Source of the DNA: a virus
Length of the DNA: 64,000 nucleotides
Strand: one strand, 5' to 3'
IMG/VR virus record: IMGVR_UViG_3300046744_000381
Span: 64,001-128,000 of that record
Shown: positions 42,157-64,000 of the stretch, piece by piece
Layout: each line of letters opens with the position of its first letter
Position numbering within the stretch: position 1 is the first letter of the stretch
Program-made: the position numbers and the translations under genes
Notes under the pieces: model-generated
The model's database searches: none
What the model saw: only the letters and a program-made list of their open reading frames with translations
Told to the model about the DNA's origin: nothing

Positions 42157-42159
42157 AGT

Positions 42160-42607: not shown

Positions 42608-42609
42608 AA

Positions 42610-42990
42610 ATCCAAGATCCAGCCGAGGTAATGCTCGTCGCCGGTGGTGTGGTATGCTCGCGTGAAGAAACATACGATAGGTTTTAAAGGATTGTGGCTC
42701 TGAGAAAAAGCAACCACAAGGTAAGTGTTTTCGCTTGTTAGGGAATAACTGCCTTCCGTTGATATGACGAAGCTAGAGTAGGAGGATACAGGTCAACCGC
42801 CTCCACTTAATGTTAAGTCAAAGTAACATTAACTTGTTTAGTGTTAAATTGAAATAACATTAAAATCTCTTTTAATAAGATGGCTGAAGCAACTCGAATA
42901 ATGCTCAAAAGCTACCTTCGCCCGGCAACGGGCGAATTATGACTTCACAATCTGAATAATACTAAAAGCATATGCTTTGCATATGCCTTA
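42610..42990 (+). ncRNA. Candidate large structured ncRNA (family unassigned)
   Basis: No ORF over ~500 bp in a dense genome; stems TTGTGG/CCACAA, AAGGTA/TGCCTT, GGAGG/CCTCC, TTCGCCCG-GCAA-CGGGCGAA (GNRA loop); G-U-compatible stems. Confidence 0.55.
42807..42864. repeat. Two tandem near-identical inverted repeats (31-nt period)
   Basis: TTAATGTTA-n8-TAACATTAA and TTAGTGTTA-n8-TAACATTAA. Confidence 0.85.
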
Positions 42991-43067
42991 TTAATATTGT
43001 TATCAAGAACTAATGATTCGTGTTGAGTGATAACGAAAACACAGTTGAACTTAGTTCAACTCATATA

Positions 43068-43083
43068 AACTAAATACATTATA
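43068..43083 (+). promoter_or_regulatory. gp55-type late promoter
   Basis: AACTAAATACATTATA, identical to the minus-strand copy at 38194-38209. Confidence 0.65.
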
Positions 43084-43101
43084 CAGCTGGAACACTTGTG
43101 A

Positions 43102-44793: not shown

Positions 44794-45029
44794 AGCAACG
44801 GCATTTTAGAATTTTTTGTATTTTCTATATTATCTTTTACAATTTTAGATATAATTTCTTGATCTTCCATATCGGTATCGTATAGCAATGTCTCCACAGA
44901 GACACCGCCTCTCATATACCAACTGAGTCTATAGATAGTGTCTTTTATTCTTTTAATATCGTTCTCAAAATCATTGGCTAATACTTCTACAGCACTATCA
45001 TCTAAGTAGATTAGCCTTTTCCGAAAAAA
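44790..45029 (-). CDS. -1 frameshift extension of the gp26-like gene (gp51-like / GT-type chaperone segment)
   Basis: 79-codon open frame FFRKRLIYLDD...LSWYMRGGVS...KMPLL* starting at slippery T TTT TTC, fills the gap exactly. Confidence 0.75.
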   Translation of the reverse strand, partial: FFRKRLIYLDDSAVEVLANDFENDIKRIKDTIYRLSWYMRGGVSVETLLYDTDMEDQEIISKIVKDNIENTKNSKMPLL

Positions 45030-45847
45030 TCTGTTTGATCAATGGTTATGCGTATTTCATTTGTTTCTTCACAAGCAGAACATTGAACAGTTTCTTTTGG
45101 TAACAACCACGTTTCGTATTGCTTATCTATATGTGCTTTTATTGCTTTAAACATATCAACATCATAGCTCTCTATGAAATCATAAATTACTTTTTTATCC
45201 TTTTCAACCTCACCATCAACTTCAATACTGTGAATAGAAAGTAAAATTGATTTCATATTCATTTTAGCTATTGAAGACAATACTGTGTCTTGAAATTTAT
45301 TTTTTTCATCTTCGTCTATGATTTTTGGTAACTGTACAGATAATGCTCTTTGAAAACCGACTGATTCTTTTTGTAAATCTGTATAGTCGGAATACGATAA
45401 AGGAACAAAATTAATTTTGAAATCGTTATACAACATAGTATCTTCAAATTCTAATTTGTTCATATAATCGATATACCTTGAAATATCAATTTCGTATGTG
45501 TTATCTTCATTGCATTTTTTACAACGCTGACTAATTTGCATTTTTGTACCATACGTTGCTAAACGTATTGATAGCAGTAATGCGTCAACATCTAAAGTTA
45601 CTAGGTCAAATGGTTTAAGAATAGACGGAATACAACTTTGTATATTTTTTGCAGTTGCTTGCCCGTTTATCAAAGCATCTGGTGTTCTATAAAGTATTTC
45701 ATCATTGGCAGTCATACTAAAAACTGCTAAATTTGAATACGAATCTTCATATAACACACTATCGCTATAGTATTTGCCTTTGCTTGGCAAATCTATATAG
45801 ATTTTTGGCTGTCTTGTATATTTTTTGAGAGGGCTTTCGTTTTCCAT
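45011..45847 (-). CDS. gp26: Baseplate hub assembly / tail assembly chaperone gp26-like
   Basis: YIDLPSKG...MTANDEIL...DVDALLLSIRLATYG, two CxxC pairs (CKKC, CSAC), ends DFF. Confidence 0.75.
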   Translation of the reverse strand: MENESPLKKYTRQPKIYIDLPSKGKYYSDSVLYEDSYSNLAVFSMTANDEILYRTPDALINGQATAKNIQSCIPSILKPFDLVTLDVDALLLSIRLATYGTKMQISQRCKKCNEDNTYEIDISRYIDYMNKLEFEDTMLYNDFKINFVPLSYSDYTDLQKESVGFQRALSVQLPKIIDEDEKNKFQDTVLSSIAKMNMKSILLSIHSIEVDGEVEKDKKVIYDFIESYDVDMFKAIKAHIDKQYETWLLPKETVQCSACEETNEIRITIDQTDFFGKG

Positions 45848-45861
45848 AATTATTCCCTAGG

Positions 45862-45886
45862 TAAATACTAGTATAGAATATTTATA
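45862..45886. promoter_or_regulatory. Face-to-face late promoters for tape measure (+) and gp26-like (-)
   Basis: TAAATA + at 45862-45867; TATAAATA - at 45886-45879. Confidence 0.6.
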
Positions 45887-45912
45887 AACAAAAAAATGCA
45901 GGAGTATGTCTT

Positions 45913-48030
45913 TTGGCTTCGGAAATAGACGAATTTTTAACTGGTAGTGGCAACGCCTTAAGTTTCTTAGGTAGAGAAGCAAAGGGCGCAGCAAATTCAG
46001 TTGTTGGTTTAGCTGGTAACTTGTTATCAGGTAGTATGAAACTATCTGACTACAGTAAAGCATTAGATAAAAATACAAAAATATTAGGTAACCTTGGTAA
46101 AGTTGTAAATGCTTTAACAATGTTCGCTGAAAACAGTTTAGCAGAATATCAAAGTTTAACAGGAATTGGTGCAAGCTTTGGCAAGCAAATGACAGAGATA
46201 AAAATTGCTGCTGCTGAATTTGGTATGACTGTTGAAGATATGACCAAGATGTTAAAAGACAACACAGAAGGGTTGAGCGCATTTGGTGGTACAACTGATC
46301 AAGCAATCAGTAGGTTTAGACAATTTAGTACCAGTGTGTTACAAAGTGATGTAGGTACTAATTTACGTAGATTAGGATTTACTGTTGAAGACATAAATGA
46401 AAACTTGTTAACATATGCAGAAATTGCTGAACAAGACAATCAATTAGAACGCAGTGTAGGTAGAGATAGAAATGCAAGTGCATTAGAGTTTGCAAAAGAG
46501 TTAGATGCACTTAGTAAACTTACAGGTAAGCAACGTGAGGATCTTGCTGACCAAATGAAAGAGGCAAGACGTCAAGGCGATGTGCAAGCATTCTTAACTG
46601 GACAAAGTGCTGATGCAAGCGAAGCACTTAGTACAGGACTAACAAAAATTGGTTCTACTATGGGGCCACAATTTTCTGAATTGTTTAAAGACTTGTTAAT
46701 ACGTGGTGCTCCTACTACAGACGAAACTAGACAGGCATTTGTTGCATTAGGCGATAGTGCTGATGAATTTCAAGCACAAGTAGATGCATTTAGATCGGGT
46801 ATGAATACAAATAACTTTGATGCATTTGATCAAAGTATATCACAAACACAAGCAGCATTTACAGATTATCTAGGAACCGAAGAAGCTAGACAAATCGGTA
46901 TGTTAGGCAACCTGACAGGTATAAGCCAAGCACAGAATCAATTAAGAGAAGATTCATATGTGTTTGCAAACAGACTAAATGCAGCAGGAGCAGCAGCAGA
47001 AGACACTCTTGTAAAATTGCAAAGAATTACTGCTGAAATAGAACGTCAACAAGAAATCCAAATGGGTGCCGAAGATACAAAAAATCTCATAGATGAAACT
47101 ATTAAATTAAACGAAGCCACTCAAAAAATGGTGCTTGCAACACAACAAACTGCACTTAAAAACTTAGAAGAAATGGGTGTTACTGCATTACAAAAAGTAC
47201 AAGCTGCAATGCCAAGTGCAGGAGAGATTACAACACAACTTGGCGGAGTTGTTGATAATTTATTTAGAGCATCAGAAAACGTTGCAGGAGTATACGAAAA
47301 GGGACGTTTTGCAATCGAGAATTTGCCTAATATGGAAGTCGGTGATGTTGAAAATATGACAGTAAATGATTTAGGTGTACCTGAACTAGCAACAGACGAA
47401 AATGCAAATACAAATGCTGAAACATTATCAGAAGAATTAAGCGATGCAAGAGCACAAGTTGCAGAAACTGAACAAAAAATTGCGCAGCTTAGTGCAAGAC
47501 AAACTGAAGCAATGCTTACAGGACAAACACAACAAGCAGATAGTATCGGTGCAGAAATAGATAAAATGAAATCCGAACTTTCGACTGCTATACAAAAGAC
47601 AGGACAAGCATTTACAAATAGTAGACTTGCTGACTATAAAAGGAGTGGATTTACCGGAAGAGGGTTTGCATCAGGAGGATATATTAGATCAGGCGAAGTA
47701 GGAGTTACAGGAGAAATGGGTCCTGAACTTATTACCGGGCCAGGAAATGTTTTAAGCACTGAAAATACTCGTAATTTACTTACTATGATGCGAGGATTGC
47801 GATCACAGATTGACAATAATGCCACTTCGTCGTATAATAATGATACAGATACGATAAGTAATAGTATTACAGAAACAATGGTCTCTATGCTTGAAGGAAA
47901 ATTAAACACACAAAATTCGCTATTAGAAAGTTTACTAAGAGTAGAAAGTGGTGCAGCTGATACAGGTAAGAGACAATTTAGAGCTACTAAAGGTTTAAGC
48001 GGCAATATGCTAAAAGGAATAGGCACGTGA
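45913..48030 (+). CDS. Tape measure protein
   Basis: Long Ala/Leu/Gln-rich helical protein, C-terminal GFASGG...GVTGEMGPEL motif; TTG start 8 nt after GGAG. Confidence 0.75.
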   Translation: MASEIDEFLTGSGNALSFLGREAKGAANSVVGLAGNLLSGSMKLSDYSKALDKNTKILGNLGKVVNALTMFAENSLAEYQSLTGIGASFGKQMTEIKIAAAEFGMTVEDMTKMLKDNTEGLSAFGGTTDQAISRFRQFSTSVLQSDVGTNLRRLGFTVEDINENLLTYAEIAEQDNQLERSVGRDRNASALEFAKELDALSKLTGKQREDLADQMKEARRQGDVQAFLTGQSADASEALSTGLTKIGSTMGPQFSELFKDLLIRGAPTTDETRQAFVALGDSADEFQAQVDAFRSGMNTNNFDAFDQSISQTQAAFTDYLGTEEARQIGMLGNLTGISQAQNQLREDSYVFANRLNAAGAAAEDTLVKLQRITAEIERQQEIQMGAEDTKNLIDETIKLNEATQKMVLATQQTALKNLEEMGVTALQKVQAAMPSAGEITTQLGGVVDNLFRASENVAGVYEKGRFAIENLPNMEVGDVENMTVNDLGVPELATDENANTNAETLSEELSDARAQVAETEQKIAQLSARQTEAMLTGQTQQADSIGAEIDKMKSELSTAIQKTGQAFTNSRLADYKRSGFTGRGFASGGYIRSGEVGVTGEMGPELITGPGNVLSTENTRNLLTMMRGLRSQIDNNATSSYNNDTDTISNSITETMVSMLEGKLNTQNSLLESLLRVESGAADTGKRQFRATKGLSGNMLKGIGT

Positions 48031-49766
48031 GTTGGAAGAAATTTTTTACACCAGTCCCAACAAGTAATAATTCAAATGGAAGTTATAGTCCATTTACTAT
48101 GAAAGGACAAGCAGGTCCGGGACCAGCTGCTTCTAATTACAGTTCCCATTTACCTGATGTTTATGTAGGTTCGCCTAACCGTATCGAAAGATACAATCAA
48201 TATAATACAATGGATAGTGACAGCGAAGTGAATGCAGCATTAGATATTCTTGCTGAGTTTTGTTCACAAAAAGCTTCTGACAACGATACACATTTTAATA
48301 TAAATTTTAAAAAACAAGCTAATAATTCAGAGGTAAAAATATTAGGAGAGTATCTAAAACAATGGTGTAAAATTCAACAGTTTGATACTCGTATGTTCCG
48401 TATTATACGTAATTCTTTTAAATACGGAGACCAATTTTTTATCAGAGATCCTGAATCACAAAAATGGTTCCACGTTGATCCTAGCCAAGTAACAAAGATT
48501 ATTGTAAACGAAAGTGAAGGAAAACGTCCTGAACAATATGTTGTAAAGAATTTAAATTTTGCATTTGGTGCTTTAGAAGCAACACCTTTAAATCAGCAAA
48601 ACAGCTACGGTCCAGGCGGAACATCGGGCTACCAGACTGTTAGTCAAAAAGCAGCTACAGGATCAGCAACACCTCCATCTGGAACAAGTAGATGGCAAAC
48701 AGACCAAAGCGAAACATTTGTTGATGCAAATAATGTAGTTCACTTATCGATGAGTGAAGGATTGGATCAAAACTTTCCTTTTGGTAATAGTTTACTTGAA
48801 AGTATTTTTAAAGTATACAAACAAAAAGAATTACTCGAAGATGCTATTATTATCTATCGAGTACAACGTGCGCCGGAGCGCAGAGTATTCTACGTTGATG
48901 TGGGCAATATGCCTTCGCACCTTGCTATGCAGTTTGTGGAGCGTGTAAAAACGGAAATACATCAAAGACGCATCCCATCCAAGACAGGTGGCGGAACAAA
49001 TGTCATAGACAGCTCATACAATCCACTGTCAATCAACGAAGATTACTTTTTCCCTCAAACTGCTGAAGGACGTGGATCAAAAGTTGAAACACTACCAGGC
49101 GGTACAAACCTAGGAGAGATTGATGACCTTAGATACTTTACTAACAAATTGGTTCGCGGATTGCGTATTCCTAGCAGTTACTTACCCACAGGCGCAGACG
49201 ATGGGGCAAGTCAATACAACGATGGGCGAGTAGGTACAGCATACATTCAAGAGCTAAGATTTAACAAATATTGCGAACGTTTACAAGGAATGCTTGAAGA
49301 AGTTTTTAACTTAGAATTTAAATTATATCTTAAAAACAAAGGTGTTAATGTTGATTATTCAATGTTTGATTTAGATCTAACACCACCTCAAAACTTTGCT
49401 GCATATAGACAAGCCGAACTTGACAACAATAGAATCAGCACCTTTAGTACTATCCAATCGGTGCCATTTATGTCAAATAGATTTGCATTAAAACGCTTTT
49501 TAGGTATGAGCGATGAAGAAATAGCAGAAAATGAACGTCTATGGCAAGAAGAAAATCAAGACAACTTAGATGCAGCAGCACAGCAGCCCGAAATGGGTGC
49601 AGCAGGATTATCAGGCGCAGGTATTACCGACGACTTTGGAGGCTTAGAAACTGAGCTTGGCGACGAAGGTGATGCAATAGATGCAGGAGAAGGCACTCCG
49701 CCTGAGACTGCAACAGGTGACGATATCGGAGGAGCAGAGGCAGCACCAACTGACCAAACTGTATAA
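48027..49766 (+). CDS. gp20: Portal protein
   Basis: LLEDAIIIYRVQRAPERRVFYVDVGNMP, EDYFFP, VETLPGGTNLGEIDDLRYF, ELRFNKYCERLQ. Confidence 0.95.
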   Translation: MSWKKFFTPVPTSNNSNGSYSPFTMKGQAGPGPAASNYSSHLPDVYVGSPNRIERYNQYNTMDSDSEVNAALDILAEFCSQKASDNDTHFNINFKKQANNSEVKILGEYLKQWCKIQQFDTRMFRIIRNSFKYGDQFFIRDPESQKWFHVDPSQVTKIIVNESEGKRPEQYVVKNLNFAFGALEATPLNQQNSYGPGGTSGYQTVSQKAATGSATPPSGTSRWQTDQSETFVDANNVVHLSMSEGLDQNFPFGNSLLESIFKVYKQKELLEDAIIIYRVQRAPERRVFYVDVGNMPSHLAMQFVERVKTEIHQRRIPSKTGGGTNVIDSSYNPLSINEDYFFPQTAEGRGSKVETLPGGTNLGEIDDLRYFTNKLVRGLRIPSSYLPTGADDGASQYNDGRVGTAYIQELRFNKYCERLQGMLEEVFNLEFKLYLKNKGVNVDYSMFDLDLTPPQNFAAYRQAELDNNRISTFSTIQSVPFMSNRFALKRFLGMSDEEIAENERLWQEENQDNLDAAAQQPEMGAAGLSGAGITDDFGGLETELGDEGDAIDAGEGTPPETATGDDIGGAEAAPTDQTV

Positions 49767-49769
49767 ATA
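49762..49769 (+). promoter_or_regulatory. gp55-type late promoter
   Basis: Exact T4 late consensus TATAAATA, 5 nt before the ATG at 49775. Confidence 0.65.
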
Positions 49770-49774
49770 AAACT

Positions 49775-50020
49775 ATGATACTTAGAGAACTTTTTTACTT
49801 TGACAAAGACAACCTAGAACCAATTGAAGACCTTACTTATAGTCCGGCTGATGATACCAGTGTGATGAAAGTTGATGATTCAAGGAAAACAAGACTTTCT
49901 TTAAAAGATATCAACAAGGCACGTAAAGCCTCAGAAAATCACCAAAAAGAAACTACAAAAGAGTTAGAATTTGTTAAACAAATGTACGGACTGGCCGCAC
50001 AAGCACAAGCCGCAGTTTAA
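49775..50020 (+). CDS. Small head-morphogenesis-region protein
   Basis: MILRELF N-terminus; RKTRLSLKDINKARK...VKQMYG. Confidence 0.55.
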   Translation: MILRELFYFDKDNLEPIEDLTYSPADDTSVMKVDDSRKTRLSLKDINKARKASENHQKETTKELEFVKQMYGLAAQAQAAV

Positions 50021-50033
50021 CAAAAGGTGACAA

Positions 50034-50648
50034 ATGTCAAGCAAAAAAGTAGCGTTTGTGCTAGGAAATGGCATAAGTCGTAAAAAAGTTAATCCATTTG
50101 ATTTAAAACAACACGGAACAATATATGGTTGCAATGCACTATATAGAACGTTTGCACCAGATTATCTTGTTGCTGTTGACACAAAAATGATAATGGAAAT
50201 ACAAAAAACAAACTATCATCATAAGCACCAAGTTTGGAGTAATCCAAACAAACTAACCAAGCAAGATCCTAATATCAATAAATTTAATCCTAATAAAGGA
50301 TGGAGTAGCGGACCCACTGCATTGCATATGGCCAGTATGCACGATAATGCAGAAATATATATTTTAGGGTTTGATTATACCGGGCTTGGTGAAAAACAAG
50401 AGTATGTAAACAACATATATGCCGGCACCCAAAATTATAAAAATACACAAGATAGAGCTACATACTACGGTAATTGGCAGAGGCAAACAATGACTTGTAT
50501 AAATCAGTTTGTCCGTACTAAATACGTTAGAGTTACGGCAAATGAGGAAAGCTATATACCGGACACATTAAAAGATTGTAATAATTTAAAACACATCACA
50601 ATTGATAATTTTATTGATTTTTTTGGTTTAACCCCAATGAAATCCTAA
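50034..50648 (+). CDS. Maf/DUF115- or GT42(CstII)-like Rossmann-fold transferase
   Basis: AFVLGNGISR, YGCNALY, PDYLVAVD, SSGPTAL, EIYILGFD motif series. Confidence 0.55.
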   Translation: MSSKKVAFVLGNGISRKKVNPFDLKQHGTIYGCNALYRTFAPDYLVAVDTKMIMEIQKTNYHHKHQVWSNPNKLTKQDPNINKFNPNKGWSSGPTALHMASMHDNAEIYILGFDYTGLGEKQEYVNNIYAGTQNYKNTQDRATYYGNWQRQTMTCINQFVRTKYVRVTANEESYIPDTLKDCNNLKHITIDNFIDFFGLTPMKS

Positions 50649-50695
50649 AATACGCTGTTTTGACCCCATTTTAAGCGTATATTTTATATAAAGTG

Positions 50696-50701
50696 TAAAT
50701 A
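50696..50701 (+). promoter_or_regulatory. gp55-type late promoter (TAAATA) for the head operon
   Basis: TAAATA upstream of AAGGAG SD of 50741. Confidence 0.55.
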
Positions 50702-50740
50702 TAATAGACAGCCTTGTAAAGATAACTAAAGGAGATAACA

Positions 50741-51703
50741 ATGACTGACAGCAATAAGTTTGAAGAAATGCTTGAGCATCTTGTTAATGAAGATCGCGAA
50801 AAAGCAGCAGAACTTTTCCACGAAATTGTAGTGGAAAAATCAAGAGATATTTACGAATCATTACTCGAAGATGAAGAAGAAGTAGATGAAACAACTGACG
50901 AAGAAGTTGATGAAGCTACTGACGAAGAAGTCGATGAATCAGATGACGAAGATTTAGACGAAGCAACTGATGAAGAAGTTGACGAAGCTACTGACGAAGA
51001 AGTTGATGAAGCTACTGATGAAGAAGTTGAAGAAGGATTCTTTGATGAACCAGCAGTAGAAGCTGACCCAGCAGACGCTATGATAGGCGACATCGAAATG
51101 CCAGATATGGATATGGACGCCGGCGACGATGAAGCAGGCGACGAAATGGGTATGGACGATGCCGACGGCGACATCGAAGATCGTGTAATGGATCTAGAAG
51201 ATGAATTAGAAGCATTAAAAGCAGAATTTGAATCTATGATGGACGATGAAGCACCAGCAGACGATGAAGCAGGTGACGAAATGCCAATGGATATGGATTC
51301 CGAAGAAGGCGACGACGACGATGCTGAAGAAGAAGCATTTGCATACGAAGCAACTGATGAAGAAGTTGATGAAGCAAGTGACGAAGAAGTAGAAGAGTCA
51401 AAAGTTGCCAAGTCAAACACAGAAGTGATGCGTGAATATACTGATAAAGTAACAGCATCAATGGGTGACAACGGTGCTAATGCAAAATCAGTAGTTGCTG
51501 GTGCAAATAATATGGGCGGATCATCTGCAAATATTGCAAAAGGTGGATCAGCTGATGAAAAAGGTACTGGCGCAAGCGCACCAAAAACAGATACCGCTGG
51601 TAACGTAAACGTTCCTGGTGGAAAAGCTGGGAAAATGAACTCAGCAAAAGCCCCTGCAAAGGGAGACAACGGCGCTAATACTAAATCAACAATTGGCGCT
51701 TAA
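50741..51703 (+). CDS. Highly acidic prohead core protein
   Basis: D/E-rich, IEDRVMDLEDELEALKAEFE coiled coil, immediately before prohead protease. Confidence 0.7.
   Translation: MTDSNKFEEMLEHLVNEDREKAAELFHEIVVEKSRDIYESLLEDEEEVDETTDEEVDEATDEEVDESDDEDLDEATDEEVDEATDEEVDEATDEEVEEGFFDEPAVEADPADAMIGDIEMPDMDMDAGDDEAGDEMGMDDADGDIEDRVMDLEDELEALKAEFESMMDDEAPADDEAGDEMPMDMDSEEGDDDDAEEEAFAYEATDEEVDEASDEEVEESKVAKSNTEVMREYTDKVTASMGDNGANAKSVVAGANNMGGSSANIAKGGSADEKGTGASAPKTDTAGNVNVPGGKAGKMNSAKAPAKGDNGANTKSTIGA
50888..51031 (+). repeat. Coding tandem repeat, 6 x 24 bp (EATDEEVD); two more units at 51347-51394
   Basis: Consensus GAAGCTACTGAYGAAGAAGTTGAY read directly. Confidence 0.9.
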
Positions 51704-51713
51704 GGACTAAAAG

Positions 51714-52331
51714 ATGAAACACTTAAACGAACATTTGAGTTTCGACCAGGCTAAGATTGTAGTTGAGTCTGCTAATGACGGCAAAGACCTTTTTATGAAA
51801 GGCATTTGTATTCAAGGCGGAGTCAAAAACGCAAATCAGCGTGTTTATCCCGTAAATGAGATTAGCAGGGCTGTCACCACACTCAACGAACAAATTAGTG
51901 GCGGCTACTCAGTGTTAGGCGAAGTAGATCATCCTGAAGGACTTAATATTAACCTAGACCGTGTTAGCCATATGATTAATGAAATGTGGATGGACGGACC
52001 TAATGGTTACGGAAAACTTAAAGTACTACCAACTCCGATGGGACAACTAGTAAAGACAATGCTTGAAAGCGGCGTCAAACTTGGTGTTTCATCGAGAGGT
52101 AGTGGCGAAGTAGACGGCGGCGGAGAAGTCGCCGGATTCGAAATAATAACTGTGGACGTTGTGGCTCAGCCCAGCGCCCCCGGTGCGTATCCAACACCAA
52201 TTTACGAACATTTAATGAACGAAAGAGGCGGATACAAGGCATTTTTAAATTCAAGAGAAGTACAAGGCGACAAAAAGGCACAAAAGTATTTAAAAGAGAG
52301 TCTATTGAATATAATAGACAGGCTCCAATAA
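51714..52331 (+). CDS. gp21: Prohead protease
   Basis: NANQRVYP, LGEVDHP, LDRVSH, LPTPMG, LGVSSRGSG, DVVAQPSAPGA. Confidence 0.95.
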   Translation: MKHLNEHLSFDQAKIVVESANDGKDLFMKGICIQGGVKNANQRVYPVNEISRAVTTLNEQISGGYSVLGEVDHPEGLNINLDRVSHMINEMWMDGPNGYGKLKVLPTPMGQLVKTMLESGVKLGVSSRGSGEVDGGGEVAGFEIITVDVVAQPSAPGAYPTPIYEHLMNERGGYKAFLNSREVQGDKKAQKYLKESLLNIIDRLQ

Positions 52332-52344
52332 CGAGGAGAAATTA

Positions 52345-53436
52345 ATGTTAGATGCACTCAAAAATCTCTTCGAAAATGACGCACTATCAGAAGAAGTACG
52401 TTCTGAATTAGAGGAAGCGTGGAACGCAAAAGTTAAAGAAAATCGACTTGAAGTTACTAGTGAACTACGCGAAGAATTTGCTAAAAAGTATGAACACGAT
52501 AAAACTACAATGGTAGAAGCCATTGATAGTCTTGTTACAGAAAAACTAGCAGAAGAAATCGCAGAATTCCAAGACGATCGTAAACAACTAGCAGAAGCAA
52601 AAGCAAAATTTGCTGTTGCTCAGCGTAAAAATGCTAATCTAATGAAATCTTTTGTTTCTGAGCAACTTGCTACAGAAATTAAAGAACTGCACTCCGATCA
52701 AAAAGCAATGGCAGATAAATTTGTTGCTCTAGAAGAGTTTGTAGTAGAATCACTTGCGAAAGAACTTGCAGAATTTTACGAAGACAAAAAAGACTTGGCC
52801 GAAACAAAAGTACGTTTAGTACGTGAAGCCAAAGAACATCTTAGTAGCGTTAAGTCAACGTTTATTAAGAAAAGTGCAGCGTTGGTATCAGAAACAGTAT
52901 CAAAGGGTCTCACAAAAGAGATTTCTTCACTGAAAGAAGATATTGAAGCAGCACGTGAAAATGATTTTGGACGTAAATTATTCGAAGCATTTGCTAACGA
53001 ATATCAACACTCATATCTTAACGAGAAGAGTGAAACTTCTAAACTACTAAGGGTTGTAGGTACTAAAGACCAACAGCTTGCAGAAGCAAAAGAAGCAGCG
53101 TCTAAAGCAATCAAACTTGCAGAAGCACAGGCAGCAGAGAACAAAAAGATCACTGAATCTGTGTCACGCAAAGAAAGTATTGATGGTTTAGTAGCTCCGT
53201 TGAGCATTGACCAGAAAGAAATAATGATGGACTTGTTAGAATCAGTTCAAACAGGAAAATTACAATCACAGTTTGAGAAATACTTACCGGCAGTTATCGA
53301 CGGCAAGAGTCCAACGAAGAAGGCAGTTTTAGCAGAGGCAAAAGAAGTAACAGGCAACAGAACAGAAACAACTGATATAACAGCAAAGGCTGATAGCAAC
53401 GTAGTTGATATCAAGCGTTTAGCTGGTTTGAATTAA
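52345..53436 (+). CDS. gp22: Prohead scaffold protein
   Basis: Long E/K/A-rich coiled coil between protease and capsid genes. Confidence 0.8.
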   Translation: MLDALKNLFENDALSEEVRSELEEAWNAKVKENRLEVTSELREEFAKKYEHDKTTMVEAIDSLVTEKLAEEIAEFQDDRKQLAEAKAKFAVAQRKNANLMKSFVSEQLATEIKELHSDQKAMADKFVALEEFVVESLAKELAEFYEDKKDLAETKVRLVREAKEHLSSVKSTFIKKSAALVSETVSKGLTKEISSLKEDIEAARENDFGRKLFEAFANEYQHSYLNEKSETSKLLRVVGTKDQQLAEAKEAASKAIKLAEAQAAENKKITESVSRKESIDGLVAPLSIDQKEIMMDLLESVQTGKLQSQFEKYLPAVIDGKSPTKKAVLAEAKEVTGNRTETTDITAKADSNVVDIKRLAGLN

Positions 53437-53446
53437 GGAGATAACA

Positions 53447-54616
53447 ATGTCAGAACTATTAGAAAGTCGCTGGCAAGAGACTAAAACAGCACTTCTTGAA
53501 GGCCTAAATGGCAATAAGAAAGCAGTTATGGCGTCAACACTTGAGAATACACGCAAGTATTTGGCTGAGACTGCAGGTGCTGGAGCTACCTCTGCCGGCA
53601 ATATCGCAACACTTAACCGTGTGATCCTACCAGTGATCAGACGTGTTATGCCAACAGTGATTGCAAACGAAATCGTTGGTGTTCAGCCAATGACAGGTCC
53701 AGTGGGTCAAATCCACACATTGAGAGTACGTTACTCTGATACAGCAGGCTCAGGCGCAAGCGGAGCAACAGCTGGAGAAGAAGCACTTTCACCATTCAAA
53801 ATTGCTGAAGCATATTCTGGTGCAACCAGTGGTAAAGCAGCAGCAACAGCAGCTCTAGAAGGTGCAGCTGGTAATAAACTTAGCATTCAGATCTTGAAAC
53901 AGACTGTTGAAGCTAAATCACGTAAGTTATCAGCACGTTGGACATTTGAAGCGGCACAAGACGCTCAAAGCCAGCACGGTATCGATGTAGAAGCAGAAAT
54001 TATGGCAGCACTTGCTCAAGAAATTACTGCAGAAATCGATCAAGAGGTCCTAGGATCACTTGCTTCTTTAGCAGGAACAGGTACAGACACTTATAACCAA
54101 GCAGCAGTATCTGGTACAGCTACATTTGTTGGCGACGAACACGCAGCTTTAGCAGTTCTAGTTAACAGAGCAGCAAACAGAATTGCACAGAGAACACGTA
54201 GAGGCGCAGGTAACTGGGCTGTTGTTTCTCCAGCAATTTTGACTGTACTTCAGTCAGCAACAACTTCAGCGTTCGCAAGAACAACTGAAGGTACTTTTGA
54301 AGCACCAACAAATACTAAAATGGTTGGTACTTTGAACGGTGCAATGAAAATCTACGTAAACACATATGCAGCAGATGATGATGTATTAGTTGGATACAAA
54401 GGTTCTTCAGAATCAGACGCAGCAGCGTTCTACTGCCCATACATTCCGTTAATGAGTAGTGGCGTTGTACTTGACCCAACATCATTTGAGCCAGTCGTAT
54501 CATTTATGACTCGTTATGGATATGTTGAGTTGTCAAACACAGCTTCGTCTCTTGGTAACGCAGCTGACTACGTAGAGAAAGTTGAAGTGAACACAGGTAA
54601 CTTGAGTTTCTCATAA
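53447..54616 (+). CDS. gp23: Major capsid protein
   Basis: RRVMPTVIANEIVGVQPMTGPVGQI, VEAKSRKLSARWTFEAAQD, AFYCPYIPL, FMTRYG. Confidence 0.97.
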   Translation: MSELLESRWQETKTALLEGLNGNKKAVMASTLENTRKYLAETAGAGATSAGNIATLNRVILPVIRRVMPTVIANEIVGVQPMTGPVGQIHTLRVRYSDTAGSGASGATAGEEALSPFKIAEAYSGATSGKAAATAALEGAAGNKLSIQILKQTVEAKSRKLSARWTFEAAQDAQSQHGIDVEAEIMAALAQEITAEIDQEVLGSLASLAGTGTDTYNQAAVSGTATFVGDEHAALAVLVNRAANRIAQRTRRGAGNWAVVSPAILTVLQSATTSAFARTTEGTFEAPTNTKMVGTLNGAMKIYVNTYAADDDVLVGYKGSSESDAAAFYCPYIPLMSSGVVLDPTSFEPVVSFMTRYGYVELSNTASSLGNAADYVEKVEVNTGNLSFS

Positions 54617-57016: not shown

Positions 57017-60000
57017 ATGGATTATTTTAAGAGACAGTCGTTACATAGCAGGTTAATAGGAGACACTAGTGTAACATTAACAGCAGATGGCGAAGTCTTA
57101 ATCGAACCAAGCGGTCGCAAGGTTACGATTGACGGCGACTTAGTTGTTACAGGAAACGCAAGCGGTTCTGAAGTTACTGACATACTTTATGTTACCCAAG
57201 ACGGTAATGATTTAAATGACGGTAAAAGTTTAGGACCAGACGGAGCGAAAGCAACAATTAAAAGTGCTGTCGCTTCATCAAGCCCGGGTACTACAATTCT
57301 TGTAGGACCAGGAGATTTCTATGAATCAAATCCAATAACTCTACCAGATTTTGTTACTATTAGAGGTACTGGTGATTTAAGAAATACTAGAATTTTCCCA
57401 AGAAATAATACGCAAACTATTTTCTATATGGGAAATGGTTGTTACTTACACGAACTTACTATGAGAGGGTTAAGATATCCAGGATGGTGTGCTGAAATAC
57501 GAGAAGGCGCACTTGTAACAACATCACCATATATACAAAACTGTACAAATATGAATGGTCCTTGGTTGAATGACGGCACAGAATTTATTCCATTCGAAAC
57601 AGTGCAGATACCAGGAATTGAACCTGGTGCTAAACCATTAATGGTTGAAGATTATCCTGCTTTACCTTCTGGCAAACAAGTTAATGACACAGGCGGCGGT
57701 GGCGGCCTATATGTTGACGGTAATCAATATGATCCTGCATCACTTGTGTTTAGTTTTGTTGCAGATGCATTTACACAAATTGCACAAGGCGGAGTTGGCT
57801 TTTGGATTGATAATTTTGGTTACACACAAATTGTTAGTTGTTTCTCAGTATTCTGTAGTGTTGGTTTTAAAACCACACGAGGCGGCTATCTATCTATTTC
57901 AAACTCTGTAAGTGACTTTGGATTAAAAGGTATTGAAGCAGACGGATTCTATCCACAAGCATATACAACTGCCAGACCACAGCAAGATTATTTTAGTACT
58001 GTTGCAAGTGTTACAATTAATACACCTGGTGCAAATTATACTTCTGCTCCTACTGTTGTAATAGAAGGACCATCAAAAGTTGGAGGCGTAACAGCGACTG
58101 CCACTGCATCAATAGACACTACTTCAGGAAAACTAGCTGCTGTTACAATACAACAAGCAGGTAGCGGTTATACTAGTGTCCCTTTAATTTCATTTAGTGG
58201 AGGCGGAGCAACTGCTCAAGCCACAGGCACAATTAATCTTGCCTCTAATGTCACAGTAACCCTAAACAGTTTAAGAGACAAACCACAAACAGGTAGTATA
58301 ATTAAATTTGAAGGTGACCCTCTTTATTATTATATTACTGGAACTAATCAAATTAATCCACCTTTTGTTTATGATGAGGTAGTATGTAGAAGAGATTTAC
58401 GTAGGATTATTGACGCTGTCACTGCTGATATTGTTTTAGGCACAAGTTATCAATCACAAGCAGCAGCAACAAGTTACTTGAGAGCAACATCAAGTAAAGT
58501 ATTATCAGATCAATTGGCACCAACTGTTTTTGGTATTGAATCGGCTAGAGACGGAATGAAGGCCGAAACTACTAATCTAGCAATGGAAGAGCAAATTGAT
58601 TATTTGTTTAACATAATTACAAGCACAATTAATGAAGGGGACAGTAGTGTACAGCCCGATAATCAAAATGATATTGCTAATACACTAAACGATCTGAATA
58701 CTATCGACCCTGCAAGAATTGCTGCAAAAAATAATGTTTTAGAAAATAGAGAGTTTATAGTAGAAGAAGTTGCAGCATATGTTAATGATCAGTTTACTGA
58801 ACTAAGTTATAACCAAGCTGATTATACTAGTGATATGACAACACTTATTAATGGTATTCAAATGTTTGCAGCGTTAGAAAGTAACCAGCAAATTATTAGA
58901 CTTGCTCAAGAATACGAAGTACGCACTAGATTCAAACCAATGTTGTTGTCTAGTTTTAGATTCCTAAGCGAAAAATTTGAAGCACTAGCCGAAGTACAAG
59001 CAAGTACAATTGCATTAACAAATGTTAAAGAAGGCTTCAACCAGTTTATGAATATTATTGATGATGGTGATAGTTCGGCAAATGTAATTGTATTTCCTGA
59101 ACACGCAGGAGTTGATAGCAATAGAGCAGATGCTAAAGATCAATTACAAGCAAACAAAAACTTTTTGACAACAGAATTTACAACTTTTCTAGCAGCAGAA
59201 GCTCCAGGATTTAGTTTTGATGTGGATAATTACAAATTAGATTTTGAAAGAATAATCGATGCTATGACCTTTGACGTCCTGTACAACGGTAATAGTAGTA
59301 CAGTTTTAGAAGCTAGATATTATTTTGATAATGGTGCAGACGGAACTTTATTTTCAGATTTAACACCTAATGATAGAAATGCTATCGTACAATCATATGC
59401 ACGTATGAGATTTGTAATAGGTAGAGTAGCTAGAGGTTTAGCTGTAACAGCTACAACCGGTAATGGCGTTAGTCAAGATTTTACAAGCAACAATGCAACA
59501 CAGAGTGAAGCTGATTTTCTAGATACATTATTGTTTAACATTGAAGATATGATAGATAATGTAACACTAGATAGATTGCCTTCAACTTTAACATATCCAA
59601 CATACGGGGACGAACCTGCGTTACAGGTAGATGCTGCAAATATTATTGAAGCTAGACGTAACGGTTTTATTACTGATGCTATATCATATAATTTAGCAAA
59701 TAATCCAACACTTACATACAATCAAGATAAATGTAAAAGAGATATCGGTTACTTGGTTGATGGAATTAATCGTGACATACTATTAGGTACTAATCATAAT
59801 AGTATACAGGCAGCTACAGCATATAAACGTGCAAATGTTGCATATCTAAATTCAGAACAAAAACCAGCTACAATTCTTTCATTAAAATATGCAAAAACAT
59901 TAGGAATAGCAGCAGTTACAACTAATGATTTAATCAGAGACGATGTTTCAGCAAAATGGGATATAATTCTTGATATTATAGAATTTGATCAATTACCTAG

Positions 60001-63000
60001 TGTAGGTATTGAATACCCGGATCCTGGTCCTGCAAGTAATGAACTAATTTATGGAGTTGATCAAGTTCTTGCAAATAAAGCATTTTTACAAGAAGAAACT
60101 GTACAATTTATTAACAATCAATATTTTGTATACAATAGTGCTAAGTGTGAAAGAGATACCGGACTTATTATTGATGCAGCAGCATATGACACATTGCTTG
60201 GTACAAACTACAATGCAGTTACAGCAGGATTATCATATCAAAGAGCAAACAGTGCATATGTTTTAAGTGATCAAAATACAGAAACAATCGGCGGTATTAA
60301 TTTTGCAAAAAGTAGATCCAGTGATGCAACAACACATTCGCCCTCGCAATCAGATGTTGAAGCAGCATTTGACGAAGTAATTGATATTATACAAAACGGT
60401 GCAGTAAGCACACCGCAGGCTGCTGATCCACTTACATTTACAGATCCATCAACTGCATCAACAGCCGAAATAAACACAAAATCTCAATTACAAAATAATA
60501 GAAATTTTATTGCTGCTGAAACAGTTGCTTACATAAATGAGAATTACGTTAATTTTACATATGACAGTTCAAAATGTGAAAGAGATATTGGATTAATATT
60601 AGATGCAATATCAAAAGATGTTGCACTAGGAACAAACTATAATACTGTAACAGCAGGATTAGCCTACTCAAGAGCCACCGCTGCAACTAACAAAGCAGCA
60701 CAAGGTTTACAAACACTCGAATCATTTAAGTTTGCACGTAAAGAAACAATCGAAAAAGGATTAAGTGATACTGGAGAAGCAAGGGCATTAGCATCGTGGA
60801 ATGAAGTTATAGATATATTTGAAAATGGCGTTGTTAGTACAGATACCGCAGCCGATGCTATAACATTTACTACTCCGGTTGGTGCAAGCCAAGATCTAGA
60901 AGATGCAAAAGATCAATTACAAGCAAATAGAGATTTTATTGCAGCTGAGATTGTTGCATATGTAAATGATAACACACCGCCGGCAGGTTATAATCAAACT
61001 AAATGCAATCGTGATGTAAAATATATTGTAGATGGTTTATCACACGATATACTTTATGGTGGTAACTCAGCAACTAGACTAGTAGCAGCTAGTTATTTTG
61101 AAGGTGCAGTAGCACAACTTCCTGTAAACCAGCTAACACCAACTACTAATGCCTATACACACTTAAAAGATACTGTGATTCCAGCAATTATCACAAATAC
61201 TCCACTAACACCTACAACTGGCAACACTGAAACTCAAGACACCACAAACGGTGCAGCAACCGCAACAGAAAGTGCAGCACTTGAATTATTGGTAGATATT
61301 ATTATTGATCACATAAATGGCTACGATAATGTTAATCCGTTAGGTGACGAAGTATTACCAAGTGTTACTTGGTCTACATCAGAACTGCAACAAGATTACA
61401 GCACTATTGTTGCACAGAAGTCAAGTATACAAAGTTTGACAACACAGTTTATTGCAGACACTTTTACTGGATTCAACTTTAATAGCACAAAATGCGATAG
61501 AGATACAAAGTATATTGTTGATGCATTAACATATGATATATTATACGGTGGCAATAGTGCTACGCTTAATGCTGCACGTAGCTATTGGGTAGGTACACAA
61601 ACACAAGTTGAAGGACAAAAAGCAGAAACTGCAACAGCGTTAGAATATACAGCAACTATATTAAATAAAATTATACAAGATCAAGCAGTTGATTATACTT
61701 GGCAATCAAGTGAAGCACAAGATACAACTGCTGGTGCAGGAACTACAACAGAAGCAGCAACCGCAGCTAACTTGTTGCAAATTATACAAGATGTTATAAC
61801 TGACGGTCTAGATAATTTGCCTACAGAAGTCAAGCCAGATTATGCAACATTTGCAAATGCAGATGTGATTGCTGGAGTTAATAATTTATTAACAGAAAAA
61901 GATACTATTGTAGCAGATACAATTACCTATATTAACACAACTTATAATGGATTTAGCTATGATCAAGAAGTATGTAAAAGAGACACAGGCTATATTATTG
62001 ATGCTATTGTACACGATGCTTTCTACGAAGCAAACATTAGCACACTAATAGCAACTCGTGCATACTTCCTAGGTAGTACACAATACTTGCCAAATGAACA
62101 AGTTGCTCCTACAGTAGCAGCATACAACCATTTACAAAGTGTAATTGATGATACTATTCAAGGTGTAGCAGTTATTCCACAGTCAGGAAATAGTCTATCA
62201 CAAGTATTGAGCGGCAATTACGGAAATGCAGCAGTAGGAACAACATTTACAAATTTGATTGGTATATTAAAAACAGCAATAACTAATCAAACTTTAATTG
62301 GAACACCGGCTGAAATTGAACCTAATTATACCTGGATTAACCAAGCAACTAGAGACGCAGCAGAATCATTTTTTGTACAAAAATCGTATTATGAAACAGA
62401 AACAATCAAATACATTGAACAAAATATTTTAGGATTCTCATATAATATTGATAAGTGTAAAAGAGATACAGGTTATATTATTGATGCAGCAATATACGAT
62501 ATGATGTATGGTGGTGATAAACAATCTCGTCGAGCAGCATTAGCATATTATAATGGTGCGATACTTACTGGTATAACAGGCGATTATGGAGATCAAACGG
62601 GTATCACAGCATATGCAAATAAGTATCTTGCTTCAATTGTAAACAAAGTTTCAAAAAATGAAACAGTTACAAAAAGTTTTGGTAACCCAGCAACACAACT
62701 ACTAACCATACCAGATGGAAGTACATTATTAGAAACTGGTGAACTTCCTGGAGCCGAACTAGAATTATTAATTGCTAGGGTTGCTGATGCAATTGAAGCA
62801 AAAACAATGGGCGATTGGTTTGAAAGAGAGCACAATTTAACATTAGGTAATTCAATATTTTTACAAGAACGAAATGCAATACTTGATGCTGAAGACGATA
62901 TTGTTGATAATGCCATTAGTTCATTAAACTTAGTATACGGTGGTATTTTTGATATCAACGTATTCCCTGGTGTTATTAGTGTAACCACAGATAAACTTGC

Positions 63001-64000
63001 AGATTTAAATAATGTTAGTACTGTTAGTACAAGTGGACACGCATTTGAGTATGTCGGTGCTGGTATAACCTACAATGCACTTCCATTCTTTGGCGGTACA
63101 GCAATACCTGAAACTGAGATTGTAGAATCAAATCAAGGTAAAATATTTGCTGGTGGTACAGTTGACCAAATTGGTAACTTTAGAGTTGGTAACTTCTTTG
63201 CTGTTAATGCACTTACAGGTGGTATCAGCTTAAATGCTAATGAAATTGACCTAGAAGGTTTGACAAGTGTTGGTCCGTTTATTAGAAACGGTATTCCAGT
63301 TGGTGTTGAATTAAAAGAGGTTAGTGACAACGAAGCATTGTTATCAAGTTTAGGCACACAAGATTTCCAAACAGCACCTACACAAAGAGCTGTTTCAAAT
63401 TATGTTGAAGCAAGATACTTGAACAAAACAACAGGCGGTGATATTGTTGGCGATGTAAGTATGACAGGAGACTTAGCAGTCAACGGTGATGCAATTACAA
63501 GTACAAATACAAGTTTTGAATTCCTTAATACAGGTGTACAAAGCATAGATATGTTAGCTGCGGCAACCACTATTAATATTGGTGCTGCAACAGGTACTGT
63601 TACAATTAATCCAGATGTTACAATAGAAGGTGTTCTAACTGTTAACGGAAACTTAGTATTTGACGGTGATGTTAATATTAGTATACCAGATGAAACATTA
63701 CAAGCATATAGTATTACTGAAGGCACTGAAGATTATATAAGCATCAATACTAGAGAAGGTGAAGAAGCAATTACATTTGGTGAGCAGCCAAGTGTTATTA
63801 TTGCCAACCAAACAATATCAACAAGCAAAGACACTGGTGCATTAGTTGTAGACGGCGGTGTTGGTGTTGAAGGCAGTGTGTTTATAAACACTGATTTAAC
63901 TGTTACTGCAAACGCAAACCTAGGTGCAGATAGAACTACATCCGAACATACTGTTTCAGGTAAAATAGATATCGATATTCCAGATGATAGTATTAATAAT
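57017..64000 (+). CDS. Giant tail fibre/structural protein (>2328 aa, runs off the right edge) with beta-helix region and tandem CxRD helical repeats
   Basis: ATG at 57017 directly after the previous stop; frame open to base 64000 (...KIDIDIPDDSINN); YVTQDGNDLNDGKS...TILVGPGDFYE pectin-lyase-like start; SGHAFEYVGAG...DQIGNFRVG fibre motif. Confidence 0.85.
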   Translation, partial: MDYFKRQSLHSRLIGDTSVTLTADGEVLIEPSGRKVTIDGDLVVTGNASGSEVTDILYVTQDGNDLNDGKSLGPDGAKATIKSAVASSSPGTTILVGPGDFYESNPITLPDFVTIRGTGDLRNTRIFPRNNTQTIFYMGNGCYLHELTMRGLRYPGWCAEIREGALVTTSPYIQNCTNMNGPWLNDGTEFIPFETVQIPGIEPGAKPLMVEDYPALPSGKQVNDTGGGGGLYVDGNQYDPASLVFSFVADAFTQIAQGGVGFWIDNFGYTQIVSCFSVFCSVGFKTTRGGYLSISNSVSDFGLKGIEADGFYPQAYTTARPQQDYFSTVASVTINTPGANYTSAPTVVIEGPSKVGGVTATATASIDTTSGKLAAVTIQQAGSGYTSVPLISFSGGGATAQATGTINLASNVTVTLNSLRDKPQTGSIIKFEGDPLYYYITGTNQINPPFVYDEVVCRRDLRRIIDAVTADIVLGTSYQSQAAATSYLRATSSKVLSDQLAPTVFGIESARDGMKAETTNLAMEEQIDYLFNIITSTINEGDSSVQPDNQNDIANTLNDLNTIDPARIAAKNNVLENREFIVEEVAAYVNDQFTELSYNQADYTSDMTTLINGIQMFAALESNQQIIRLAQEYEVRTRFKPMLLSSFRFLSEKFEALAEVQASTIALTNVKEGFNQFMNIIDDGDSSANVIVFPEHAGVDSNRADAKDQLQANKNFLTTEFTTFLAAEAPGFSFDVDNYKLDFERIIDAMTFDVLYNGNSSTVLEARYYFDNGADGTLFSDLTPNDRNAIVQSYARMRFVIGRVARGLAVTATTGNGVSQDFTSNNATQSEADFLDTLLFNIEDMIDNVTLDRLPSTLTYPTYGDEPALQVDAANIIEARRNGFITDAISYNLANNPTLTYNQDKCKRDIGYLVDGINRDILLGTNHNSIQAATAYKRANVAYLNSEQKPATILSLKYAKTLGIAAVTTNDLIRDDVSAKWDIILDIIEFDQLPSVGIEYPDPGPASNELIYGVDQVLANKAFLQEETVQFINNQYFVYNSAKCERDTGLIIDAAAYDTLLGTNYNAVTAGLSYQRANSAYVLSDQNTETIGGINFAKSRSSDATTHSPSQSDVEAAFDEVIDIIQNGAVSTPQAADPLTFTDPSTASTAEINTKSQLQNNRNFIAAETVAYINENYVNFTYDSSKCERDIGLILDAISKDVALGTNYNTVTAGLAYSRATAATNKAAQGLQTLESFKFARKETIEKGLSDTGEARALASWNEVIDIFENGVVSTDTAADAITFTTPVGASQDLEDAKDQLQANRDFIAAEIVAYVNDNTPPAGYNQTKCNRDVKYIVDGLSHDILYGGNSATRLVAASYFEGAVAQLPVNQLTPTTNAYTHLKDTVIPAIITNTPLTPTTGNTETQDTTNGAATATESAALELLVDIIIDHINGYDNVNPLGDEVLPSVTWSTSELQQDYSTIVAQKSSIQSLTTQFIADTFTGFNFNSTKCDRDTKYIVDALTYDILYGGNSATLNAARSYWVGTQTQVEGQKAETATALEYTATILNKIIQDQAVDYTWQSSEAQDTTAGAGTTTEAATAANLLQIIQDVITDGLDNLPTEVKPDYATFANADVIAGVNNLLTEKDTIVADTITYINTTYNGFSYDQEVCKRDTGYIIDAIVHDAFYEANISTLIATRAYFLGSTQYLPNEQVAPTVAAYNHLQSVIDDTIQGVAVIPQSGNSLSQVLSGNYGNAAVGTTFTNLIGILKTAITNQTLIGTPAEIEPNYTWINQATRDAAESFFVQKSYYETETIKYIEQNILGFSYNIDKCKRDTGYIIDAAIYDMMYGGDKQSRRAALAYYNGAILTGITGDYGDQTGITAYANKYLASIVNKVSKNETVTKSFGNPATQLLTIPDGSTLLETGELPGAELELLIARVADAIEAKTMGDWFEREHNLTLGNSIFLQERNAILDAEDDIVDNAISSLNLVYGGIFDINVFPGVISVTTDKLADLNNVSTVSTSGHAFEYVGAGITYNALPFFGGTAIPETEIVESNQGKIFAGGTVDQIGNFRVGNFFAVNALTGGISLNANEIDLEGLTSVGPFIRNGIPVGVELKEVSDNEALLSSLGTQDFQTAPTQRAVSNYVEARYLNKTTGGDIVGDVSMTGDLAVNGDAITSTNTSFEFLNTGVQSIDMLAAATTINIGAATGTVTINPDVTIEGVLTVNGNLVFDGDVNISIPDETLQAYSITEGTEDYISINTREGEEAITFGEQPSVIIANQTISTSKDTGALVVDGGVGVEGSVFINTDLTVTANANLGADRTTSEHTVSGKIDIDIPDDSINN
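58360..62900 (+). repeat. About ten ~140-165-aa protein repeats, eight with C-x-R-D
   Basis: Cys codons at 58385, 59732, 60146, 60575, 61004, 61493, 61973, 62456; Cys-less copies near 58820 and 59230. Confidence 0.85.

Follow-up and report, generated by a model that had tools for sequence, protein, structure and literature searches.

Predicted phycobiliprotein-like globin domains in tandem, with a conserved C-x-R-D motif, in a giant fibre-type protein of an uncultured jumbo phage

The stretch of 64,000 nucleotides analysed here (the window) corresponds to bases 64001-128000 of the viral record IMGVR_UViG_3300046744_000381 (136,876 bp) and contains, from position 57017, a giant open reading frame (ORF) whose product would be, from its sequence, a giant tail-fibre-type or baseplate-appendage virion protein. 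The central 1,520 amino acids (aa) of this protein would be ten tandem globin-fold domains descended from bilin-binding globins, the phycobiliproteins (PBPs) and their kin, each domain being a globin core minus the N-terminal X-Y hairpin. Since the C-x-R-D motif is kept in 8 of the 10 units and its residues in approximately 91-97% of related units, these domains have most likely retained binding of a linear tetrapyrrole, which would be attached in the infected cell during virion assembly, probably independently of a lyase, by analogy with the bilin biosynthesis-associated globins (BBAGs). The bilin would be provided by a phage cassette of heme oxygenase (HO) and a PcyA/PcyX-like reductase, which is present in near-complete relatives and may sit in the missing 62% of the genome of this phage. 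The fibres of a virion would then bear tens to hundreds of chromophores in total, and the pigment might, speculatively, make the fibre light-responsive, for example by gating adsorption. The best explanation as a whole, bilin binding included, is a PBP-descended fibre globin array most likely still carrying pigment, with a probability of about 0.5. Its parts differ in strength: profiles and models make it highly probable that the units share ancestry and fold with the bilin-binding globins (PBP superfamily) and keep the attachment motif, and the chance that they bind a bilin, as judged from the motif, is even or slightly lower.

The ORF starts with the ATG at 57017 (+), immediately downstream of the stop codon of the previous ORF, and extends 5,506 nt beyond the window end; in the record, the full ORF encodes 2,830 aa (genome 121017-129506). 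It shows matches to tail-fibre and virion-structural PHROG families: phrog_5342 (8e-92), phrog_4527 (1e-82) and phrog_701 (4e-40), plus phrog_9851. The initial annotation had described about ten repeats in this ORF, spaced 410-500 nt apart, eight of them with the motif, and this description was borne out. A hidden Markov model (HMM) built from seven of the protein's own units shows ten tandem units of approximately 140-165 aa each, between aa 447 and 1968. For nine of them the domain E-values lie between 7.6e-16 and 3e-64, and aa 594-725 form a weak copy (E 0.51); in the copy at aa 729-891, Y-x-L-D stands in place of C-x-R-D. Successive motifs are separated by gaps of 414-489 nt, and one gap of 1,347 nt contains these two degenerate copies. 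The C-x-R-D motif is present eight times, with flanking residues exactly as quoted in the annotation, where composition predicts 0.027 occurrences; among 20,000 shuffles, 511 contained at least one motif and none contained more than two. After residue 300 (the last 2,530 aa), the only Cys residues of the protein are the eight motif Cys. The structural domain begins approximately 48 aa ahead of each Cys and, therefore, the unit register of the HMM is permuted relative to it. The features of the ORF, all on the + strand, are as follows:

57017..64000, continuing past the window (+): giant virion fibre-type ORF, from the ORF list, the PHROG families and its position downstream of structural genes
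57017..58354 (+): N-terminal region, aa 1-446, with tail-fibre N-terminal families phrog_17885 (aa 8-178) and phrog_3442 (aa 48-142)
58355..62920 (+): array of ten phycobiliprotein-like globin units, aa 447-1968, from the own-unit HMM
58355-58786; 58796-59191 (weak); 59201-59689 (Tyr replaces Cys) (+): array units 1-3, HMM register
59699-60115; 60113-60538; 60539-60967; 60968-61456 (+): array units 4-7, HMM register
61457-61936; 61940-62419; 62420-62920 (+): array units 8-10, HMM register
58385..58396 (+): C-x-R-D motif 1, Cys457, from the translation, as for motifs 2-8
59732..59743 (+): C-x-R-D motif 2, Cys906
60146..60157 (+): C-x-R-D motif 3, Cys1044
60575..60586 (+): C-x-R-D motif 4, Cys1187
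61004..61015 (+): C-x-R-D motif 5, Cys1330
61493..61504 (+): C-x-R-D motif 6, Cys1493, within the unit modelled singly
61973..61984 (+): C-x-R-D motif 7, Cys1653
62456..62467 (+): C-x-R-D motif 8, Cys1814
61349..61831 (+): single structural domain, aa 1445-1605, modelled with AlphaFold2 from a 141-unit alignment (pLDDT 93.1, pTM 0.86)
62921..64000, continuing (+): first portion of the C-terminal fibre region (aa 1969-2830), with phrog_9851 (aa 2001-2136) and phrog_701 (aa 1490-2317)

The relationship of the units to PBPs was seen in sequence profiles of the family. At E<=1e-3, 1,249 of the 7,998 candidates scored are homologues of the fibre protein, with E-values down to 0, and a precomputed hit to the PBP family PF00502 is found in 33 of the 120 homologues listed. 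In a rescan of eight homologues, seven lie above the PF00502 cut-off (30.4-50.1 bits against 22.2; E 4e-7 to 4e-13) and the eighth, with 15.7 bits, lies below it. The stretches matched by PF00502 in the homologues are the C-x-R-D units and span 75-125 profile positions, such as 25-149 or 27-153 of 155. Among 141 diverse single units, PF00502 is matched at E<=0.01 by 11, and every other family by at most one. Two profiles were compared with the PDB: A2, which covers two units (34 rows), and A3, which covers one unit (141 rows). Chains of phycocyanin alpha or phycoerythrocyanin make up 14 of the 16 A2 hits at E<=10, led by 6jpr_A (E 0.0028), and the HMMER alignment of A2 puts Y-D-x-x-K-C-x-R-D-x-G-Y...G-G on residues ~76-103 of phycocyanin alpha, with the Cys on residue 84. 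With A3, PBPs are four of the five hits, and the motif is in register with the bilin Cys. The phycocyanin alpha chromophore helix had been quoted approximately in the annotation, and the solved chains in the HMMER alignments show the same pattern, K-C-x-R-D-I/V-G-Y...G-G. The fibre protein itself gave nothing relevant in a phmmer search of the PDB, and the ORF gave no megablast match among 50,697 phage records. Since the protein's own units fall below Pfam significance and most of the rescanned homologues pass, the membership of this protein in the PBP family would be transitive; at the sequence level, the signal is weak for this protein alone, and specific and consistent family-wide.

The predicted fold points to the same family. 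Template-free AlphaFold2 models were obtained from alignments containing only phage sequences. The single-unit model (aa 1445-1605) shows helices at model residues 11-22, 24-38, 46-66 (the Cys is residue 49), 70-77, 91-109 and 133-152, and a short hairpin at 80-85. Its best structural matches are allophycocyanin, phycoerythrin and ApcE: in Foldseek, every match listed up to rank 30 is a PBP (probability 0.82-0.99, TM ~0.5, E 0.2-0.8), and in VIA-align only six chains among 48,161 representatives reach Z>=8, five of them PBP or ApcE and the sixth a sensor globin. The PBP matches of this model have Z 9.4-7.8 and a root-mean-square deviation (rmsd) of 3.5-5.1 over 116-141 residues, within the range, below ~13, that helical bundles can also give according to the caution issued with VIA-align. 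Full-length matches down to Z 6.5 are all of globin fold, and matches to two helices lie lower. The two-unit model (aa 1400-1760; pLDDT 74.4, pTM 0.59) matches PBPs in 31 of the 36 Foldseek rows listed against the PDB (probability 1.00, target TM ~0.6, E 0.03-0.3), and in VIA-align its ranks 1-8 are all PBP or ApcE (Z 15.5-12.6, rmsd 2.2-4.8 over 118-161 residues), followed by other globins with Z 8-11. The ApcE-type structures among the top matches are 4xxi_A, 7eyd_19, 7sc7_BD and 9wg7_N2. Both searches are independent, since VIA-align does not rely on Foldseek. The initial annotation had proposed PBP-like globin domains keeping the attachment motif, and had named a fold other than globin-like as evidence against them, an outcome that the models do not show; its proposal gains from the homologues that pass PF00502, from the Cys in register and from AlphaFold models whose predicted fold matches PBPs and ApcE first. 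Single-unit alignments begin at PBP residues 25-49, and the X-Y hairpin seems to be absent from the modelled units; the two-unit model aligns from PBP residue 1-2, possibly by borrowing a helix of the adjacent unit. The unit model also shows a short hairpin after the F' helix and a Thr/Gly/Asn-rich loop of ~25 aa before the last helix. A search of the ESM Atlas gave only unnamed viral clusters, all with scores <0.9.

Conservation of the chromophore site was counted in approximately 1,680 units from 120 proteins. In PBPs, the Cys of the motif forms the thioether to the bilin, whose propionate and pyrrole nitrogens are held by the Arg and Asp. In the phage units, the Cys (position 0) is present in 91%, being otherwise mostly Tyr, with Arg(+2) in 91% and Asp(+3) in 97%, while the units are otherwise only ~26-30% identical (~26% per alignment column). 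Exactly one Cys is found in 99 of 135 sampled units, and a second conserved Cys is absent. This constraint on C-x-R-D across the units is the main argument for retained bilin binding. Four further positions are also conserved: Asp(+9) in 86%, Asp(+14) in 97%, Asn(+20) in 84% and Tyr(+30) in 97% of units.

The units are widespread among viruses. The motif pattern was found in at least 713 stretches of IMG/VR, 697 of them confirmed, and a search of 1.84 billion with profile A3 gave at least 1,661 matching protein clusters (E<=1e-3). Unit-bearing proteins range from 800 to 6,400 aa and contain 5-37 matched stretches each. In tblastn, aa 1318-1968 have matches in 57 of the 50,697 records of isolated phages, and all belong to Synechococcus, Prochlorococcus or 'Cyanophage' entries, in which the depositors annotated the matching proteins as tail fibre, short tail fibre or gp7-like; the homologue of phage S-PM2, S-PM2p088, is located between annotated virion structural proteins. 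A stringent DNA pattern of the motif was found in only eight stretches of 596 Gb of prokaryote genomes, all in contigs of metagenome-assembled genomes (MAGs) of mixed taxa. Since cellular genomes are almost without pattern matches, the domain is essentially viral.

Genes for bilin synthesis are present in relatives of this phage. An adjacent pair of genes for HO and a ferredoxin-dependent bilin reductase (FDBR) is found in G004 (230 kb) and G007, two of the 20 longest unit-bearing records, and the FDBRs of both are 225 aa long and PcyA-like, scoring well below the PcyA cut-off. The capsid protein of G004 is 79% identical to that of the phage studied here, and this record contains HO, FDBR and unit-bearing giant ORFs and lacks psbA. 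Starting from the FDBR of G004, the five longest FDBR-bearing viral records all show giant ORFs with units, all contain HO and none contains psbA. Three of these five clearly belong to the same clade (capsid 84%, 82% and 80% identical), and two of the three are nearly complete: G021 (353 kb, 98% complete, capsid 84% identical) and G022 (345 kb, 94% complete, capsid 82% identical), both with HO, FDBR and unit-bearing giant ORFs and without psbA. In G004 (42001-54000), the HO-FDBR pair follows genes encoding a small heat-shock protein and ClpS, and approximately 1.6 kb downstream of it there is a gene encoding a CsgG-like secretion protein and a curlin-repeat-like ORF. G007 (L127:703-2204) shows a RecA-like gene apparently interrupted by an intein, with matches to the N- and C-terminal splicing regions in two adjacent ORFs.

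Several results weigh against a PBP-derived, bilin-binding array. For this protein alone, PF00502 has no hit at E<=1 in the first 2,327 aa (Pfam scan), it is matched by none of nine of its own units, and a profile of these nine units retrieves no PBP from the PDB; even with A3, the best PDB E-value is 0.078. No Foldseek match reaches E<=0.001 with either model, and the single-unit Z values are in the range open to helical bundles. The conserved Asp+9, Asp+14, Asn+20 and Tyr+30 are not known as PBP features, and the site may therefore be remodelled. Genes for PBPs, HO, FDBR and CpeT are absent from the 136.9-kb record, which is 38% complete (CheckV); PF00502 was not found in a six-frame search of the whole record, and Pfam shows no photosynthesis or bilin gene among 110 of its other ORFs. 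The cassette occurs in only two of the 20 longest unit-bearing records, all of them 15-65% complete. HO/FDBR and units are found in the same genome in G004, G007 and G021-G025, the cassette being tens to hundreds of kb from the fibre genes, and this co-occurrence is biased, since the records with both features were mostly picked through FDBR; picks based on the fibre (homologues P0015 and P0094) gave only fragments of at most 85 kb and no near-complete genomes. Nine fragments of the clade picked by the capsid gene (16-53% complete) show units in seven and the cassette in none, a count that carries little information, since the capsid gene and the cassette are ~135-185 kb apart in G021 and G022. 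Lyases of the CpeT/CpeS type (T-/S-type) are absent from all 10 related records, two of which are at least 94% complete; E/F-type HEAT lyases were not searched. Finally, the Pelagibacter phage Mosig (MT647606.1, complete, 141 kb) has HO and FDBR and shows no unit by profile search (A2 or A3), and A3 finds no unit in the bilin-making P-SSM2 (NC_006883.2), which, according to PMC2984593, carries pebA (now pebS) and pcyA. Because these two phages lack units, phage bilin synthesis has at least one use apart from such fibres. The suggestion of the initial annotation that the array is a sink for phage-made bilins thus stands in part: close relatives do pair HO/FDBR with the fibres, while this 38%-complete contig shows neither gene, Mosig and P-SSM2 make bilins without such fibres, and the T-/S-type lyases are missing from the related records.

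The chief alternative is that the units are of PBP- or BBAG-like descent and serve as pigment-free, rigid helical spacers setting the length of the fibre. In that case C-x-R-D would persist because it stabilises the fold, mediates contacts of domains or chains with one another, or binds a different ligand, a metal ion for instance. The number of units varies among homologues (5-37 stretches), as expected of length-setting modules, the motif helix bears extra invariant acidic and polar residues that are not known from PBPs, most unit-bearing contigs show no bilin genes, and the points on the lyases and on P-SSM2 and Mosig, whose bilin genes do not need such fibres, also favour spacers. However, packing alone would hardly account for a lone Cys that persists, along with its exact Arg and Asp partners, in 91% of ~1,680 divergent units; a second conserved Cys that might form a disulfide is absent, and near-complete relatives without psbA encode HO and FDBR. 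A pigment-free array is somewhat less probable than one that carries pigment. It is very unlikely that the resemblance to PBPs is convergent, a generic helical bundle sharing a short motif by chance: identity to PBPs is just 7-19% in the structural alignments, the Foldseek E-values stay above 0.001, many unrelated two-helix matches lie at Z ~6 and the ESM Atlas yields nothing beyond unnamed viral clusters, but PF00502 matches homologues over 75-125 positions, well beyond the motif, with E down to 4e-13, the highest ranks in two independent structure searches, for each of two models, go to PBPs and not to other helical proteins, and the full-length matches above Z 6.5 are all globin-fold. The least probable reading, by a small margin, is that the units bind bilin-related host molecules, such as a host surface or antenna component, by PBP mimicry, as all 57 matching records among isolated phages being cyanophages might suggest, since phycobilisomes are cytoplasmic and beyond the reach of a fibre, the domains abound in a jumbo clade without psbA, similar contigs occur in non-cyanobacterial MAG bins, and P-HM1 and P-HM2 infect Prochlorococcus, said in PMC2984593 to lack standard phycobilisomes.

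If the units are globins carrying a bilin, the pigment might act in adsorption. According to Liu et al. (PMC6628666), P-HM1 and P-HM2 show no adsorption in the dark, P-SSM2 and the podovirus P-SSP7 adsorb in the dark, and the light-dependent adsorption of S-PM2 is independent of host photosynthesis (there citing Jia et al. 2010). Profile A3 shows four matches in each of P-HM1 and P-HM2, nine in S-PM2, and none in P-SSM2 and P-SSP7. Units thus track light-dependent adsorption in five of five cultured cyanophages, the three with units needing light and the two without them adsorbing in the dark, in a tiny sample of approximately four independent cases, since P-HM1 and P-HM2 are one species, and with a podovirus that has no giant fibres anyway. 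Literature searches gave no further phages with a known dark-adsorption phenotype beyond PMC6628666, and the agreement is a pointer, not a test. That bilin-bound fibres act as photoreceptors gating adsorption by light is unlikely. In this reading, the PBP-like domains with their chromophore would change conformation under illumination. If true, the particle would be the first of any virus to sense light, the fibres would be the photoreceptor so far missing from the adsorption of cyanomyoviruses such as S-PM2 and P-HM2, which depends on light and not on photosynthesis, and giant phages lacking photosystem genes would have a reason to synthesise bilins themselves.

The capsid protein of this phage is nearest to that of Vibrio phage 2.275.O (70% identity) and its portal to that of Sinorhizobium phage Phosso (53%). 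This uncultured phage is a jumbo myovirus with a genome of ~350 kb and falls into the RaK2/PA5oct/Atu_ph07 lineage; its identity as a T4-like cyanophage was rejected, since both proteins are nearest to jumbo phages of this type. The giant fibre ORF is located downstream of the genes for the portal, the prohead protease, a scaffold-like ORF and the major capsid protein, and farther upstream of this structural block there are genes for a gp55-like late sigma factor and SbcCD-like nucleases. An ORF encoding a SegE-like GIY-YIG homing endonuclease (window 42160-42585, +) lies between the SbcCD-like genes and the structural block. With regard to the N-terminal region of the fibre protein, Pfam matches DUF1565 in the homologue P0026 (aa 71-127), and no Pfam family matches the C-terminal 1,168 aa of the fibre protein itself. 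The next ORF, beyond the window (genome 129605-136876, +), encodes at least 2,424 aa, is cut at the contig end and contains two C-x-R-D motifs and approximately four units; since it holds the same units, the phage has at least two such fibre proteins. A second giant ORF within the window (14281-28086, -; 4,602 aa) shows a CBM_5_12 module at aa 1474-1501 and a weak FG-GAP match, contains no C-x-R-D units and probably encodes another virion appendage. Outside the window, at genome ~43-57 kb, eight radical-SAM ORFs, of which three contain SPASM domains, form a block that adjoins a stretch (genome ~38.9-45.8 kb) with two ORFs of the nitroreductase family and three of the Asp/Arg-hydroxylase type; by its gene content, the region resembles a peptide-modification cluster, which is unusual for a phage. 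At genome 27605-29539, a 644-aa ORF fuses a subtilase with a copper-binding domain of the plastocyanin/azurin type, and a fatty-acid desaturase ORF comes after it.

PBPs are known as antennae of cyanobacteria and red algae, and the BBAGs have been known since 2023; a third, virus-borne branch would widen the biology of the family. It would also make two questions testable: why phages, including those presumed to infect heterotrophs, carry HO and bilin reductases, and what the light sensor is in cyanophage adsorption. The reason for phage heme oxygenase and bilin reductases is stated as unclear in PMC11480375 and PMC2984593. If the domains were apo-proteins, they would still represent an unusual case in which virus fibres are built from a reused photosynthetic-antenna fold.

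Literature searches found no published annotation or description of a relationship between these fibres and PBPs, and the known systems compared here are the PBPs themselves, the BBAGs, ApcE and the fibres of T4-like cyanophages. The phage units share with PBPs the predicted globin-type fold, PBPs being their best structural matches, and the E-helix C-x-R-D, whose Cys aligns with the chromophore Cys of phycocyanin alpha. They differ in several respects. PBPs are free subunits of ~160-180 aa, whereas the phage units are arranged 5-37 in tandem within proteins of 800-6,400 aa. In the models, the units seem to lack the X-Y hairpin, which in PBPs serves alpha-beta pairing, and appear to add the short hairpin and, connecting the last two helices, the Thr/Gly/Asn-rich loop of ~25 aa. 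They also show the extra invariant Asp, Asp, Asn and Tyr, those of this protein lie under the Pfam threshold, no lyase is found nearby, and the domain is viral and hardly cellular. BBAGs are single-domain cellular proteins encoded beside the reductase, whereas the phage units stand in tandem in a virion protein, with the cassette distant; BBAGs were compared by description only. As described by Rockwell et al. 2023 (PMC10151467), BBAGs are globins of heterotrophic bacteria, non-antenna relatives of PBPs that bind several bilins, and CXRD with the attachment Cys is common to PBPs and to BBAG-1 and BBAG-3, which bind bilins without a lyase. BBAGs occur alongside PcyA-type reductases, and the likeness to the phage units lies in the CXRD motif and in the PcyA-like FDBR of the phage relatives. 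The core-membrane linker ApcE is alike in having a PBP-type domain inside a very large multidomain scaffold protein. It is a phycobilisome component in which unrelated linker repeats come after a single PBP domain, and its chromophore Cys is located elsewhere. The giant fibre or baseplate proteins of T4-like cyanophages (S-PM2p088, and the 4,458-aa and 3,682-aa ORFs of P-HM2) contain homologous units, and belong to another lineage than the RaK2/PA5oct/Atu_ph07-type phage described here.

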